Shown: positions 1 through 30,545, numbered from the stretch's first letter. The stretch is DNA of 64,000 nt from Alcaligenaceae bacterium (GCA_044508625.1 JBIQHJ010000003.1:2104-66103); one strand, 5' to 3'. Translations and numbers: made by a program. Notes: generated by a model not told the origin, from the sequence alone.

Positions 1-259
1 TGGGTCATGGCGAGACTCGCGGGCGGATACGGGTGCCGCATGCGGCGGCAGAGTTGAGGACCTTACGCCGTCCGATCCGGGCCAGCAAGAGCCCCTGGCC
101 ATGATACGTCCCTATTTATGATTCCATGATTATCGGGCCGTAGAAAATGGGGACGGAACAAATCACATGAAAAATAAAGGTAGTATTCGGCGCTTGGGCC
201 GCAAGCCAGGCGGGAAAACCCCTATGGAAAGCCTCAAAAATTTTATTTTGGCACGGCCA

Positions 260-24938: not shown

Positions 24939-27215
24939 ATGATCGCCTTCAAGCCCAAAGGCTGCGCCCTGCCGCCCATCGGACTGCTCATGGCCCTGGG
25001 CCTGGCCGCCGCTCCGGTGGGGGCGCAGTCCTTCGATGATGTCGCCCAGCTCGAGCGCGTGGTCGTCAAGGCCGAGCAGGAGCTCAAGCAGACACCGGGC
25101 GCGTCCACCATCACCGCCGAGGACATCCAGAAATCCCCGCCCGCCACCGACGTCTCCGAAATCATCCGCACCATGCCGGGCGTGAACCTCACCGGCAATT
25201 CCTCCAGCGGCCAGCGCGGCAACAACCGCCAGATCGACATCCGCGGCATGGGCCCGGAAAACACCCTCATCCTGATCGACGGCAAGCCGGTCTCGTCGCG
25301 CGGCTCGGTGCGTTTCGGCTGGCGCGGCGAGCGCGACACGCGCGGCGACACGAACTGGGTGCCGCCCGAGATGATCGAGCGCATCGAGGTCCTGCGCGGC
25401 CCGGCCGCCGCCCGCTACGGCAACGGCGCGGCCGGCGGCGTGGTCAACATCATCACCAAGCCGCCCGTCGACACGCTCACGGGCTCGGTCTCGACCTACA
25501 TCAACGTCCCGCATCACAGCGACGAGGGCTCGACCGCGCGCACGACCTTCAACCTGGCCGGCCCGCTCACGGACAGCCTGGACTTCCGCCTGTACGGCAG
25601 CGCGGCGAATTTCGAGGGCGATGCGTACGACATCAACGAGGGCCACGCCTCGGCGCGCGGCGGCGCCAACGCCGGGACCTTTCCCGCCGGGCGCGAGGGG
25701 TTCAAGAACCGCGATATCGCTGGCATACTGAGCTGGAAGCCCGCCGCCGGCCACAAGATCGACTTCGAGGCGAGCTACGGGCGCCAGGGCAATATCTACG
25801 TCGGCGATACGCAAAACACCAACAGCAACGCCACCGTCAAATCCCAGCTCGGCAGCGAGACCAACCGCATCTATCGCCAGACCTACTCGATCACGCACAA
25901 CGGCGACTGGAATGCCGACACGCACACCCTGAGCTACTTCCAGTACGAGCAGACCCGCAACACCCGCCTGCTGGAAGGCCTGGCGGGAGGCACGGAGGGC
26001 ATCTTCAACGATCCCGCCGCGGCGGGCCTCGGCGGCTATGGGGACATCGACTTGCGGACCCTGACGGCGCACACCGAATTGAACCGGCGCCTGAACTGGG
26101 GCGGGATCGACCAGATGGGCACCTTTGGCCTCGAGTGGGTGCGCCAGGACCTGGAGGACAATGCCTCGGACCTGAAGCAGCGCAATCCGCAGGCGCAGGT
26201 TCCCGCGCCGCTGGCGGCCTACCAGCCCAAGGCGCATGCGAACATCTATTCGGCGTTCGCCGAGGACAACCTGTACATCGGCGACCACTGGACCGTCACG
26301 CCGGGCCTGCGTTTCGACCATCACAGCATCCACGGCAGCAACTGGAGCCCCTCGCTGAACCTGGCCTACCTGGTCAACGACCAATGGACGGTCAAGGCCG
26401 GCATCGCGCGGGCCTACAAGGCGCCGAACCTCTACCAGAGCAATTCCGGCTATGCGCTCTATAGCGCCGGGAACGGCTGCTGGGGCAATCCCTCGGGCGG
26501 CGGCAACGGCTGCTTCCTCATGGGCAATTCGGACCTCGAGGCGGAAACCAGCATCAACAAGGAACTGGGCGTCGAGTTCCGCAGCCCCGACGGCCTGGGC
26601 GCCAGCCTGACCTATTTCCACAACGACTACCGCGACAAGATCGAGGCCGGCCGCACGCCCGTGTCCTCTTTCGTGGTGGGCGGCAGGACGCAGAACGTCT
26701 TCCAATGGGAAAACATCCCGCGCGCCGTCGTCCAGGGCCTGGAAGGGAACCTGACCTGGCCCTTTGCGCAGGACTGGCTGTGGTCGACCAACGCCACCTA
26801 CATGATCGAGTCCAAGAACAAGGACACCGGCGAACACCTGTCCACCATCCCCGAGTACACCGTCAACAGCACGCTGGACTGGTCCGTGACCCCGGCCTGG
26901 TCCATGCGCGCCAAGGCCACCGTCTACGGCGAGCAGGAGGGCCCCAAGTATGACTACTACGGCCAGCCGCTGACCGGCAGCGCCACGGACAAGATTCCGC
27001 CCTACGCCATCTTCGGCCTGAGCACGCAGTACAAGTTCAGCAAGCACCTGCGCGTGACGATGGGCGTGGACAACGTGTTCGACAAGCGCCTGTTCCGCGC
27101 CGGGAACGCCATCGGGGTGAACCTCACCACGCCGAACTACATCTACGGCGCCGGCGCCTACACCTACAACCAGCCCGGCCGCACGTTCTTCCTCGAGGCC
27201 ACGACCTCGTTCTGA
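24939..27215 (+). CDS. fepA: Ferric-enterobactin TonB-dependent receptor (FepA/PfeA/BfeA)
   Basis: GVNLTGNSSSGQRGNNRQIDIRGMGPENTLILIDG, GWRGERDTRGDTNWVPPE and AGAYTYNQPGRT, all diagnostic of the FepA family. Confidence 0.93.
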   Translation: MIAFKPKGCALPPIGLLMALGLAAAPVGAQSFDDVAQLERVVVKAEQELKQTPGASTITAEDIQKSPPATDVSEIIRTMPGVNLTGNSSSGQRGNNRQIDIRGMGPENTLILIDGKPVSSRGSVRFGWRGERDTRGDTNWVPPEMIERIEVLRGPAAARYGNGAAGGVVNIITKPPVDTLTGSVSTYINVPHHSDEGSTARTTFNLAGPLTDSLDFRLYGSAANFEGDAYDINEGHASARGGANAGTFPAGREGFKNRDIAGILSWKPAAGHKIDFEASYGRQGNIYVGDTQNTNSNATVKSQLGSETNRIYRQTYSITHNGDWNADTHTLSYFQYEQTRNTRLLEGLAGGTEGIFNDPAAAGLGGYGDIDLRTLTAHTELNRRLNWGGIDQMGTFGLEWVRQDLEDNASDLKQRNPQAQVPAPLAAYQPKAHANIYSAFAEDNLYIGDHWTVTPGLRFDHHSIHGSNWSPSLNLAYLVNDQWTVKAGIARAYKAPNLYQSNSGYALYSAGNGCWGNPSGGGNGCFLMGNSDLEAETSINKELGVEFRSPDGLGASLTYFHNDYRDKIEAGRTPVSSFVVGGRTQNVFQWENIPRAVVQGLEGNLTWPFAQDWLWSTNATYMIESKNKDTGEHLSTIPEYTVNSTLDWSVTPAWSMRAKATVYGEQEGPKYDYYGQPLTGSATDKIPPYAIFGLSTQYKFSKHLRVTMGVDNVFDKRLFRAGNAIGVNLTTPNYIYGAGAYTYNQPGRTFFLEATTSF

Positions 27216-27311
27216 GGCGCGTGCAGCGGCCGCCGGGGCTGTCCGCCCAGCGGCCATGTCCGATGCGCCGGTATCCAGCCGGCATTCAGCCGGTGTCCGT
27301 CCAGGCGGCGT

Positions 27312-28001
27312 CTAGGCGGCGGCCCCCTTGCGGGGCCGGCCGCGCGGGGCCGGCGCCACCCGACGCGAGGCCAGGCGCCCCAGGTGGGCGAGGAATATGC
27401 GCTCGCCCAGCGCCCACTGGCCCAGGATCGCGGCCTCGATCTGCGCGCGCTGGCGGGCGTCCGCGCCCGCCTCCAGCCGCTGGCGGTAGCCGGCCTGGCG
27501 CGAGAACGGCGTGTTGCCTTCGTTCCAGTAGTCCATGTGGTCGACCAGCATGGGATCGGCGCGCAGGCCGATGTGCCCCGCCGCCGAGGACCACGGCCAG
27601 CGCGCCGGCGTGTCCACGTAGCCCAGCGCCGCCGGCAGGGATTCGAGCCAGACCATTGCCGGCAGCACCCAGCGGCCCGGCTCGAGCAGGGCGTTGTGGT
27701 AGCGGCCCTCGTAGGCGCGGCCGCGCTGCATGCCGGCCCCGATGCGGCGGCCCACGCCCTGGATCACGCGCGAGAGGCCCTGTGAGTCGGCGGGGGTGCC
27801 CAGCAGGCACAGGCGGTCGGGGGTGATCACCCACGCGTGCAGGGCGAGCCCGTGGCGCGCGACCTCCTGGCCCAGCCAGTCGCGCAGGCGCTCCATGTCG
27901 GCCGCCGGGGCGGGCTCGGAGGCCCGCGCAAAGGCTTGCGCGAAACAGGCCTGCGCCAGTTGGGGGATGCGCGGGGCGTAGAGACGAGGCAGTCGGGCCA
28001 T
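27312..28001 (-). CDS. Y1_Tnp/RAYT-fold protein lacking the catalytic HUH and Tyr residues
   Basis: MARLPRL start, HAWVITPDRLCLLGTP (canonical HAYVLMxNHxHLL), EGRY, WLESLP (canonical YIxxNP) and WPWSSA. Confidence 0.75.
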   Translation of the reverse strand: MARLPRLYAPRIPQLAQACFAQAFARASEPAPAADMERLRDWLGQEVARHGLALHAWVITPDRLCLLGTPADSQGLSRVIQGVGRRIGAGMQRGRAYEGRYHNALLEPGRWVLPAMVWLESLPAALGYVDTPARWPWSSAAGHIGLRADPMLVDHMDYWNEGNTPFSRQAGYRQRLEAGADARQRAQIEAAILGQWALGERIFLAHLGRLASRRVAPAPRGRPRKGAAA

Positions 28002-28127
28002 GAAATGGTCGGTATCCCGCGGAAGGGTGCGTCGACAGGGGAACGGCCCTATTATAGAAAGATGGCACGCCCCGCCGGGCGACCCGCGCGACCCGCGGGC
28101 CACACACAGGCAAGGATACGACACACT

Positions 28128-30545
28128 ATGCATACCAGCCAGCCGATTTCCCCCTCCATTCGCCGGGTCGCGGTCTGCGGCGCCGGGGTCATGGGCGCCC
28201 AGATCGCCGCGCACTGCGTCAACGCCGGCGTGCCGGTGATCCTCTACGATCTCGCCGCACCCGATGGCGACAAGAACGCCGGCGTCCGGCGCGCCATCGA
28301 GCACCTGCGCAAGCTCAGCCCCGCGCCCCTGGCGCGCGACGACCTCGCCGAGCTGATCCTGCCGGCGAATTACGACGACGGCCTGGGATTGCTCGCGGAC
28401 TGCGACCTCGTGATCGAGGCGATCGCCGAGCGCCTCGACTGGAAGCGCGACCTCTACCACAAGATCGCGCCCGCCCTGGGCCCGCGTGCGATCATCGCCA
28501 GCAACACCTCGGGGCTGTCCATCGCCGCGCTCTCCGAGGCCTTGCCCGAGGGCGCCCGCCACCGCTTTTGCGGGGTGCATTTCTTCAACCCGCCGCGCTA
28601 CATGACGCTGGTCGAGCTGATCCCCACCGCCGCGACCGAGCCCGCGCTGCTCGACGCCCTGGAAACCTTCCTGGTGTCGCGGCTGGGCAAGGGGGTGGTG
28701 CGCGCCAAGGACACACCCAACTTCATCGGCAACCGCATCGGCGTATTCGGCATCCTCTCGGTCTTTCACCACACCCGGGCCTTCGGCCTGCCCTACGAGC
28801 TGGTCGACGACCTGACCGGCACCCGCCTGGGCCGCGCCAAGTCCGGCACCTTCCGCACGGCCGACGTGGTCGGCCTCGACACCCTGGCGCACGTGGTCGG
28901 CACCATGCGCGACCAGCTTCCCGACGATCCCTTCCACGCGCATTTCGAGGTGCCGCCCGAGGTCGCCGCGCTGATCGCCAAGGGCGCCCTCGGCCAGAAG
29001 TCCGGGGCGGGATTCTTTCGCAAGGAAGGCAAGGCGATCCTGCGCCTGGATCCGGCCAAGGGCGAGTACGTGCCCACGGGCGCGGCGGCCGACGACGCGG
29101 TCAAGGCGATCCTCGGCGAGCGCGACGCCGCGCGGCGCCTGCGCGCCCTGCATGATTCCGATCATCCGCAGGCCCGCTTCGTCTGGGCCGTCCTGCGCGA
29201 CATCTTCCACTACAGCGCCACGCGCCTGGCAGAGATCGCGGACAACGCGCGCGAGCTCGACGAGGCCATGAAGTGGGGCTTCGGCCACCGGGAGGGTCCC
29301 TTCGAGATCTGGCAGGCCGCCGGCTGGCGCCAGGTCGCCGAATGGATCGGCGAGGACATCGCCGCGGGCAAGACCCTGTCGCCGGAGCCGCTGCCCGCCT
29401 GGGCCACCAGCGGCCCGGTCTGGGAACGGCAGGCGGTCCACACGCCCGAGGGCTCGTACAGCCCCGCGGCCGGCGCCTACCGGCCGCGCAGCGCGCTGCC
29501 CGTCTACCGGCGCCAGGTCGGCGCCCCGCGCCTCGTCGGCGAGGGGCCCGGCCTCGTGCCAGACATCGTGCACGAGGACGAGGCGGTGCGCTGCTGGACC
29601 CTGCCCGAGCCCCATCCGCGCGACGTGCTCATCGTCTCGTTCAAGACCCGGATGCACACCCTGGCGCCCGACGTCGTGCGCGGTGTGGTCCGCGCGGTCG
29701 CCCGGGCCGAGTCGGACTACAAGGCCCTGGTCATCGGCCAGCTCGACGATCCGTTCTCGGCCGGCGCCGACCTCAAGGCCATGATGCCCGCCTTCATGGC
29801 GGGCGGCGTCAATGCCATCGAGCCCCTACAGCGGGAAATGCAGGAAATGTCCATGCGCCTGCGCCACGCCCGGGTCCCGGTGGTGGCCGCCCTGGCGGGC
29901 ATGGCCCTGGGCGGCGGCTGCGAGCTGGCGGTGCATTGCGCGCGCCGCGTGGCCCACATCGAGACCTACATCGGCCTGGTCGAGGCGGGCCTGGGCCTGA
30001 CGCCGGGCGCGGGCGGCATCACCCACGGCGCGCGCCGCGCCGCCGAACGCCAGGCGGCCTGCGCGCCCGAGGCGCCCCTGCAGGCGATGCTCAAGCCCTT
30101 CCTCATGGCCGCGGCGACCGCGCAGGTCTCCAAGTCCGCCCTGGACGCGCGCCGCCTCGGCTACCTGCGCGAATCCGATCCCATCGTCATGAACCGCCAC
30201 GAGCTGCTGTACGTCGCGGTGCGCGAGGCGGCGAACCTCGCCGACCAGGGCTGGCATGCGCCGCTGCCGGCGCGCTTCCCGGTGGCGGGGCGCGACGCCT
30301 TCGCCACTTTCAAGGCGCAACTGGTCAACATGCGGGTGGGCGGCTTCATCTCCGAACACGACTTCCACGTGGCCGAGCGGATCGCCTACGCCATGTGCGG
30401 CGGCGATCTCGATCCGGGCTCGCTGGTCGACGAGGCCTGGATGCTGGGGCTCGAGCGCGAGGCTTTCCTCGGCCTGCTCGCGACGCCCAAGACCCAGGAA
30501 CGCATCGCCGGCCTGCTGCAGACCGGCAAGCCGACCCGCAATTGA
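28128..30545 (+). CDS. 3-hydroxyacyl-CoA dehydrogenase / enoyl-CoA hydratase fusion (FadN/FadB-like)
   Basis: GAGVMGAQIA, SNTSGL, HFFNPPRY, FIGNRIG, FSAGADL and GGGCEL motifs. Confidence 0.9.
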   Translation: MHTSQPISPSIRRVAVCGAGVMGAQIAAHCVNAGVPVILYDLAAPDGDKNAGVRRAIEHLRKLSPAPLARDDLAELILPANYDDGLGLLADCDLVIEAIAERLDWKRDLYHKIAPALGPRAIIASNTSGLSIAALSEALPEGARHRFCGVHFFNPPRYMTLVELIPTAATEPALLDALETFLVSRLGKGVVRAKDTPNFIGNRIGVFGILSVFHHTRAFGLPYELVDDLTGTRLGRAKSGTFRTADVVGLDTLAHVVGTMRDQLPDDPFHAHFEVPPEVAALIAKGALGQKSGAGFFRKEGKAILRLDPAKGEYVPTGAAADDAVKAILGERDAARRLRALHDSDHPQARFVWAVLRDIFHYSATRLAEIADNARELDEAMKWGFGHREGPFEIWQAAGWRQVAEWIGEDIAAGKTLSPEPLPAWATSGPVWERQAVHTPEGSYSPAAGAYRPRSALPVYRRQVGAPRLVGEGPGLVPDIVHEDEAVRCWTLPEPHPRDVLIVSFKTRMHTLAPDVVRGVVRAVARAESDYKALVIGQLDDPFSAGADLKAMMPAFMAGGVNAIEPLQREMQEMSMRLRHARVPVVAALAGMALGGGCELAVHCARRVAHIETYIGLVEAGLGLTPGAGGITHGARRAAERQAACAPEAPLQAMLKPFLMAAATAQVSKSALDARRLGYLRESDPIVMNRHELLYVAVREAANLADQGWHAPLPARFPVAGRDAFATFKAQLVNMRVGGFISEHDFHVAERIAYAMCGGDLDPGSLVDEAWMLGLEREAFLGLLATPKTQERIAGLLQTGKPTRN

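Follow-up and report, generated by a model that had tools for sequence, protein, structure and literature searches.

What can a transposase do for its host after its catalytic residues have been replaced? This question is raised by a gene, here called P0001, that lies at positions 27312-28001 (minus strand) of a 64,000-nucleotide stretch of DNA from an Alcaligenaceae bacterium (GCA_044508625.1, JBIQHJ010000003.1:2104-66103), referred to below as the window and counted from its first letter. A first-pass annotation had read the gene as an intact but catalytically dead Y1/RAYT transposase, exapted into a non-catalytic factor that binds single-stranded DNA, hairpins or RNA. Our data make it highly probable that P0001 has the HUH fold, that catalysis has been lost completely, that the single-copy gene is maintained by purifying selection, that it descends from a TIRtron (a transposase gene with its terminal inverted repeats, TIRs) at the promoter of gltB, the gene of the large subunit of glutamate synthase, and that half-sites derived from the former ends are conserved at this promoter, and only alongside the gene. 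The protein is probably a DNA-binding regulator now. The complete reading, in which P0001 binds TIRs without catalysis, carries a putative AT-hook and acts at the promoter of gltB, is in our judgment evenly poised between true and false; its binding and regulatory parts are predicted from sequence comparison.

The open reading frame (ORF) of P0001 starts with an ATG at 28001, ends with a stop codon at 27312-27314, is intact over 229 codons and has a GC content of 0.76, compared to 0.70-0.75 in the neighbouring genes. The motifs quoted in the first-pass annotation were all found at their places: the N-terminal MARLPRL, H55-A-W-V-I, E-G-R-Y, W-P-W-S-S-A, and close to the C-terminus the AT-hook-like P-R-G-R-P-R-K at residues 219-225 (codons at 27327-27347, minus strand). 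The position of the metal-binding HUH motif reads D62-R63-L64-C65-L-L, the codons of R63-L64-C65 being located at 27807-27815 (minus strand), where aligned intact relatives have HVH or HLH. In the helix that should carry the catalytic tyrosine, P0001 reads V-W118-L-E-S-L122-P (codons from W118 onwards at 27633-27650, minus strand), with Trp instead of the nucleophilic Tyr and Leu instead of the Asn that serves as third metal ligand in the Y-I-E-L-N-P of intact proteins. Typical Y1 proteins carry this Tyr on helix alpha-D and use Asn or Gln as the third ligand, in class 2 in the form Y-x-x-x-N-P.

Direct sequence searches were nearly empty. P0001 has no Pfam match at E ≤ 1, reaches 18.5 bits with the NCBIfam model REP_Tyr_transpos (NF047646), far below its cut-off of 80, and retrieves just a spurious transcriptional regulator from the PDB with phmmer. 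Profiles, a structure model and intact intermediates were required to establish the relationship. The AlphaFold (AF2) model, built on 25 homologues, has a mean confidence (pLDDT) of 75, with 85-96 over residues 10-90 and low confidence in the C-terminal third. It contains the RRM-like beta-alpha-beta-beta-alpha-beta core fold of the HUH/Y1 superfamily, and its top Foldseek match is 4er8_A, the E. coli TnpA-REP (E 2.5e-7, TM score 0.69 on the target), followed on ranks 2-20 by TnpA structures of ISDra2, IS608 and IS200. The search for homologues of P0001 found 921 proteins, and HMMER over the whole library returned 1520 representatives at E ≤ 0.001, the best 150 of which are nearly all 200-300 amino acids long; canonical members among them have the motifs HAYVLMxNHVHLL...RYIELNPVRAG...YPWSSY and reach 51-59 bits with Pfam Y1_Tnp (PF01797). 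The register of the replaced residues was set by full-length alignment to these intact relatives, and the profile match to 4ER8 likewise places W118 opposite the first Tyr of YIYINP. The N-terminal QRGNNRQ block of the intact members is also lost in P0001.

The closest described group are the TIRYTs, TIR-flanked RAYT/Y1 HUH transposases of about 230 amino acids that form TIRtrons, have the TIR consensus GGGGWSAS and conserve HUH and Tyr in all members (Di Nocera et al. 2013, PMC3733652). Quentin et al. 2018 (PMC6006769) classify roughly the same proteins as TnpA-Y1 subclass 2.1 or 2.1.1, and in Bertels et al. 2017 (PMC5581495) they are probably the Group 1 RAYTs. In full-length alignment to intact TIR-flanked members, to which it is 26-40% identical, P0001 has the TIRYT-type length, the MARLPRL start, the WSS motif, the GNTPF(E/A)RQ and GW.LG blocks, the C-terminal helical extension and the terminal P-R-G-R-P-R-K, and like the TIRYTs it has no family of repetitive extragenic palindromic (REP) sequences. 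In a comparison of 43 members, dead and intact, G221 and R222 do not vary and P223 hardly does, so that the GRP core of the candidate AT-hook is preserved. This segment has the canonical AT-hook core (R/K-G-R-P flanked by basic residues), gives no Pfam match in P0001 and scores 14.9 bits in the relative P0195, compared to the PF02178 cut-off of 17.4. In contrast to the TIRYTs, HUH, Tyr and Asn are replaced in P0001, which also stays below the Pfam Y1_Tnp and NCBIfam REP_Tyr_transpos thresholds and is vertically inherited at one locus. By alignment and model, P0001 is hence best classified with the long TIRYT/TIRtron type of RAYT by descent, as a dead derivative rather than a functional member.

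The loss of catalysis extends far beyond this genome. The nucleophile and all three metal ligands are missing in 25 of 25 aligned Alcaligenaceae homologues, taken from Castellaniella, Candidimonas, Pusillimonas, Pollutimonas, Allopusillimonas, Paralcaligenes, Yanghanlia and others; in these sequences R63, W118 and E120 are invariant, D62 is nearly so, and 63 columns are invariant altogether. The statement in the first-pass annotation that similar proteins occur in Bordetella and Achromobacter proved right: full-length orthologues with 52-54% identity were found in both genera. Relatives were confirmed in 263 species genomes by the pattern scan with which the related loci were collected. Within the genus, at least 22 of 24 genomes have one orthologue each, and the frame is open in every genome searched. 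No relative above 35% identity was found on 72,556 plasmids. Pairwise dN/dS values (ratio of nonsynonymous to synonymous substitution rates, NG86 method) are 0.04-0.08 in Achromobacter, 0.04-0.17 in Bordetella and 0.12-0.15 for the window gene and its closest relatives, a clade already separated from gltB. These values are far from 1 and, together with single-copy occurrence and synteny, bear out the proposed maintenance as a host gene. It had been suggested that orthologues be inspected for consistent loss of HUH and Tyr; both are lost in all aligned Alcaligenaceae and retained in some orthologues of other families. Since those orthologues keep the motifs, the alignments place the decay at family level, as an old event and not a recent one. 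Among 133 full-length representatives of the wider family, 84 lack both motifs, 25 lack HUH only, 5 lack Tyr only and 19 keep both, and well-supported branches in a tree of 138 representatives, which is too poorly resolved for an exact count of losses, force at least 6-8 state changes.

Which host gene might profit from the dead protein? The first-pass annotation had pointed to the fad genes, and indeed the arrangement it described is present, with fadB starting at an ATG at 28128 on the opposite strand across a 126-bp gap (28002-28127), followed by fadA and pgi. However, the fad link is secondary, because a divergent fadB is located upstream in part of the family only, whereas the association with gltB is older and crosses families. 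In Bordetella, Achromobacter, Paralcaligenes, Pusillimonas, Candidimonas, Pollutimonas and some Castellaniella, gltB lies directly downstream of the orthologue on the same strand, with a gap of 100-1270 bp, mostly 250-500 bp, and this gene order holds for the majority of Alcaligenaceae loci. In a sample of 151 genomes of the order, 19 genomes, representing 8 GTDB families, have a homologue as the immediate upstream neighbour of gltB, and these 19 comprise nearly every sampled genome with a GltB more than 73% identical to that of Achromobacter. The intact relative P0135 is likewise situated upstream of gltB. Judged from these comparisons, gltB and not fadB is the oldest conserved partner of the dead transposase.

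The catalytic state of the gltB-linked genes is mixed. By sequence, the homologues in G152, G136, G093, G082, G085, G115 and probably G163, i.e. 6-7 of the 19, are intact, as is P0135; only the Tyr is lost in G133 and G032, only HUH is lost, fully or in part, in G035, G153 and G144, and both are lost in G060, G095, G041, G047, G104, G089 and G140 as well as in all Alcaligenaceae. All 20 of the 20 unlinked high-scoring homologues in these genomes retain both HUH and Tyr, and most of them are bounded by clear inverted ends of the type A/T tract-GGGGWCAGAC. In the tree, the unlinked genes form one clade (SH-aLRT support 98), while the linked genes fall outside and cluster according to the family of the host; an approximately unbiased test does not reject their monophyly (p = 0.32). 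As far as these alignments go, catalytic decay is thus specific to the gltB-linked lineage. At locus L149 (G109), an intact unlinked TIRtron is followed in its downstream flank by at least 8 tandem copies of end fragments of the CCCCTTTGATTCCA type, and it seems that TIR arrays grow beside active members.

In the window, gltB itself is found at the left edge. Its start occupies positions 1-8 on the minus strand (ATG at 6-8), and the gene continues past the window edge; tblastn located it at C77:3-2162 (minus strand), at the left end of this contig, with 81-83% identity to Achromobacter GltB, and the gltB start ATGACCCAC is common to the congeners. P0001 and gltB are separated here by an insert of about 27 kb (260-27215), and four other congeners have 18-29 kb between orthologue and gltB. 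According to Pfam matches and ORFs, the insert encodes an EntA-like short-chain dehydrogenase/reductase, an EntB-like isochorismatase, an EntE-like AMP-binding protein, a periplasmic binding protein, a MacB-like ATP-binding cassette (ABC) transporter and a TonB-dependent receptor, whose gene runs convergently to P0001 and ends at 27215; it looks like a catecholate-siderophore cluster. The gene and the half-sites described below have both persisted in this genome despite the split. The gene is missing from a further congener, G005 (L139), whose gltB shares only 63% identity with the query, compared to 79-85% in the other congeners, and has a glutamine-synthetase-like gene directly before it; the entire locus appears to have been replaced.

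Where the gene is present, the leaders of gltB contain a conserved sequence element. A half-site consists of an A/T tract of about 8 nucleotides beside (A/G)GGGAC(G/A)NA, every half-site has such an adjoining tract, and two copies are present in each gltB leader located behind the gene; in Alcaligenaceae the two copies are inverted. In the window they are situated 27 kb away from P0001, in front of gltB, both on the minus strand: the left half-site TTCCGTCCCCATTTTC at 143-158 with the core GTCCC at 150-154, scoring 17.8 bits in a whole-genome search with a position weight matrix (PWM), and the right half-site CATAAATAGGGACGTATC at 103-120 with the core GGGAC at 108-112, which at 27.5 bits is the best PWM hit of the genome. 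The pair was found by eye in all 19 linked leaders. The cores are 42 nucleotides apart in 43 of 44 Alcaligenaceae leaders and the core itself is invariant. In the two copies of the other families, CTGTCCCC and CTGACCCC, we find exactly the reverse complement of the published TIRYT TIR consensus GGGGWSAS, and the cores RGGGAC of the Alcaligenaceae and the window agree with it in 7 of 8 positions. Hence, the statement of the first-pass annotation that no REP palindromes or ends of insertion sequences surround the gene is correct for its flanks, which are unique in the 3.96-Mb assembly (BLAST of 27216-27311 and 28002-28127), and relic ends do exist 27 kb away at 103-158. None of the examined gltB leaders without an adjacent gene contains the pair (0 of 20 in the order, most of them with a dGTPase gene upstream), nor does the gltB leader of G005 have half-sites. 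The left TIR is present in most intact linked members and lost in the dead ones, whereas the right pair is kept by all.

The position of the pair relative to the promoter is likewise conserved. The predicted core promoter of gltB in the window (60-88, minus strand) consists of TTGCTG at 83-88, a 17-nucleotide spacer and TAAGGT at 60-65, assigned by consensus match only. In relatives, inspection by eye gave a TTGxxx hexamer, 17 nucleotides and a -10-like TAxxxT hexamer, which places the predicted cores near -56 and -98; of the 43 leaders in which a TTG was found, 32 have the triplet 23-24 nucleotides downstream of the right core. Does the inverted pair act as a hairpin or as two binding sites? 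A REP-like hairpin was considered and dropped, because the two arms do not vary in concert (5.40 of 12 matches, compared to 5.38 in shuffles). Without covariation, the arms behave like separate copies of a binding motif rather than the sides of a stem, which together with the location upstream of the gltB -35 box fits two sequence-specific DNA half-sites better than a folded hairpin. Of the original proposal, an intact, catalytically dead protein maintained as a host gene is supported, while the hairpin or RNA target is disfavoured. The idea of a regulon with further sites was also abandoned, since all remaining PWM hits in the genome equal the expectation from shuffled sequences.

Some leaders deviate from the simple pair. 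In Bordetella and Achromobacter (L071, L074, L077-L079, L082-L089), a third half-site in right-arm orientation occurs at a fixed distance of 110-111 nucleotides upstream of the left arm, which suggests a three-site architecture in these two genera. The gltB leaders L104 (G136) and L114 (G041) have a perfect palindrome, AAATGGGGTCAGACCCCATTT or AAATAGGGTCAGACCCCTATT, as their promoter-proximal site; it looks like a left and a right end abutted head to head and recalls a joined-ends junction.

How could these features have come together? In the scenario that we propose, a TIRtron consisting of the transposase gene and inverted ends of the A/T-tract-GGGGWCAG type is lodged in the intergenic region directly before the core promoter of gltB in many Burkholderiales. 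This copy was immobilised, with loss of the left end in most dead lineages, and the catalytic residues decayed independently in several families, up to the loss of the nucleophile and all three ligands in Alcaligenaceae. Purifying selection has retained the HUH-fold body, the C-terminal helical extension with its putative AT-hook (RGRPRK) and the pair of right-end half-sites, which are spaced by 42 nucleotides, equal to four helical turns, about 23 nucleotides upstream of the -35 box of gltB. The protein may no longer cut DNA and may still recognise its former ends, the putative AT-hook contacting the A/T tract and the body the GGGAC core, and occupation of both half-sites might modulate the transcription of gltBD. 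With 18-29 kb between gene and sites, it would have to act in trans in the genus studied here. The more far-reaching version, in which an HUH transposase was turned repeatedly and independently into a sequence-specific gltB transcription factor in several families of the Burkholderiales, with the former ends, at a fixed distance of four helical turns next to the -35 box, as operator, we regard as tentative and somewhat less probable than not.

Several observations weigh against a regulatory role of P0001 at gltB. The conservation of the sites could be explained by another factor or by RNA polymerase, and the co-occurrence of sites and gene would also follow from their joint arrival on one element. 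The retention of the gene 18-29 kb away from gltB in this genus indicates no cis requirement and is neutral with regard to any gltB link. Deep branches of the tree are poorly resolved, so that repeated insertion into a hot spot is possible for the other families. Furthermore, some gltB-linked orthologues are catalytically intact by sequence; the ancestral role may have involved catalysis, and that of the dead forms may be reduced or different. Finally, the AT-hook-like motif stays under the Pfam threshold, and its segment is disordered in the AF2 model, within the C-terminal third of low confidence.

The alternative that survives best is a selected non-catalytic nucleic-acid binder, e.g. of single-stranded DNA at replication forks or of RNA, that has nothing to do with gltB or the former TIRs, while the half-site pair is used by another regulator or by RNA polymerase. 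We consider it unlikely, albeit deserving serious attention. Purifying selection on P0001 persists after the split of 18-29 kb from gltB, and relatives with the HUH fold bind single-stranded hairpins, and the TnpA of IS608 is reported to associate with the replication fork (PMC6006769). Yet an unrelated user of the sites would have to rely on sequences that match the TIR consensus of P0001's own family, occur only alongside the gene, represent the only strong instances of the motif in the genome and were kept as a right pair at exact spacing by dead lineages that lost the left end.

Regulation of the divergent fadB-fadA operon, the target suggested by the first-pass annotation, appears improbable. 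The divergent fadB arrangement is kept in about 55 of 80 loci, in Castellaniella, Pusillimonas, Candidimonas and Pollutimonas, but its place is taken by esterase D or adhC in Bordetella, Achromobacter and Paralcaligenes and by a dGTPase gene in other families. Moreover, the fadB gap has no conserved half-site-like motif, and no site in the gap of the window reaches the PWM threshold. Several relatives have a different palindrome, AAATTCAAACGATCGTTTGAATTT, in the fadB gap, which suggests a separate regulator. This perfect palindrome is found in the fadB-proximal region of several Castellaniella relatives (L017, L024, L034, L035) and is absent from the 126-bp gap of the window; we take it to resemble the AAAC-N4-GTTT operators of TetR-type regulators of fatty-acid metabolism such as PsrA. 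The gap also contains a -10-like TATAAT at 28051-28056 (minus strand), about 50 nucleotides upstream of P0001. The surrounding stretch TATAATAGGG is common to the closest relatives only, other genera having TAGAAT or TATTTA boxes there, and can be read as the predicted promoter of P0001 itself rather than as a left TIR. The sequence TATAATAGGGCC (28043-28058) was considered as a relic left TIR and autoregulatory site and discarded, because it is shared by the closest relatives only, coincides with the position of the -10 box elsewhere and stays below the PWM threshold. Neither flank of P0001 in the window carries a TIR, and no REP-like hairpin beside the gene exceeds the imperfect GC-rich repeats usual at such GC content.

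Could P0001 still be an enzyme with a substitute nucleophile and substitute ligands, e.g. the invariant Y8, Y101 or Y158 together with H55, D62, E120, H143 or H155? In favour of this, a number of Tyr, His and acidic residues vary little or not at all in the family, and E120 is conserved in dead and intact members. However, all four canonical catalytic positions are replaced (R63, C65, W118, L122), and the wider family has varied residues there (W, F, L, A, S), as expected from relaxed constraint rather than from a newly formed active site. Intact members conserve H55, Y101 and E120 to the same degree, so that these residues belong to the scaffold as structural or DNA-binding features, and the left transposon end is missing, which leaves retained catalysis very improbable. 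The weakest alternative, a decaying relic that is open by chance, would agree with the view of Quentin et al. 2018 (PMC6006769), who set aside members without the core motifs as probably non-functional, but it is practically refuted by the dN/dS values of 0.04-0.17, the 63 invariant columns in 25 sequences and the frame that is open in every genome searched.

If P0001 is a TIR-binding factor at gltB, how does it compare to known systems? With the TIRYTs it shares relic ends that resemble GGGGWSAS, in 7 of 8 positions in the window and exactly in orthologues of other families; it differs by the missing left TIR and by a right end that has become a pair of fixed spacing at the gltB promoter, whereas most intact gltB-linked orthologues keep both TIR ends. 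The E. coli TnpA-REP/RayT (4ER8) is the best structural match and, like P0001, a single-copy domesticated gene, but the identity is 12%, and the E. coli protein has 165 amino acids, is flanked by REPs and active on REP hairpins, whereas P0001 has a C-terminal extension of 90 amino acids, no REPs and no catalytic residues. Of the strict RAYT features, P0001 is single-copy, vertically inherited and chromosomal, and there is no genome-wide REP/REPIN family, since its flanks are unique and the half-site is not a repeat family. The TnpA proteins of the IS200/IS605 elements (IS608, ISDra2) have the same HUH/RRM-like core fold and are active, multi-copy proteins of about 130-150 amino acids acting on subterminal hairpins, whereas P0001 displays no copy expansion, no catalytic residues and no covarying hairpin. 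A functional analogy for the proposed mechanism might be seen in the TldR proteins, nuclease-dead derivatives of TnpB (a RuvC nuclease of IS200/IS605 elements) that serve as RNA-guided transcription factors at host promoters. In both cases, catalysis would have been lost and the protein retained as a site-specific regulator of a host promoter; TldR belongs to another protein family, and recognition by P0001 would be achieved by the protein itself at former transposon ends.

A second dead HUH protein is possibly encoded in the same genome. Outside the window, contig C96 contains at about 2100-2600 another short Y1/RAYT-like ORF, in which HUH is kept (H-A-H) and F-I-V-R-N-P stands at the position of the catalytic Tyr.

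What would such a protein mean for the biology of the family? RAYTs are textbook examples of domesticated bacterial transposases with an unknown host role, and to our knowledge every described member retains its catalytic centre. RAYT domestication, the TIRYTs with their TIRs and the informal notion of inactivated derivatives are already known; our literature search on inactive RAYTs and gltB-linked transposases found no description of a selected dead lineage, a fixed linkage to gltB or a conserved pair of former TIRs. Such proteins are annotated as hypothetical or transposase, and the main survey of the family (Quentin et al.) discarded them as non-functional. The existence of a selected dead lineage, with 84 of 133 representatives lacking both motifs, shows that the selected function is distinct from DNA cleavage and suggests DNA binding, while the partnership with the gltB promoter offers a concrete and testable target in bacteria that are easy to work with. 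If the proposal is true, P0001 and its orthologues would be a new regulator of nitrogen assimilation in Burkholderiales, the order of Bordetella, Achromobacter and Burkholderia. It would also be a bacterial parallel to the transposase-derived transcription factors of eukaryotes, in which a prokaryotic transposase and its TIRs would have been co-opted jointly as a pair of regulator and cis-element for central nitrogen assimilation.

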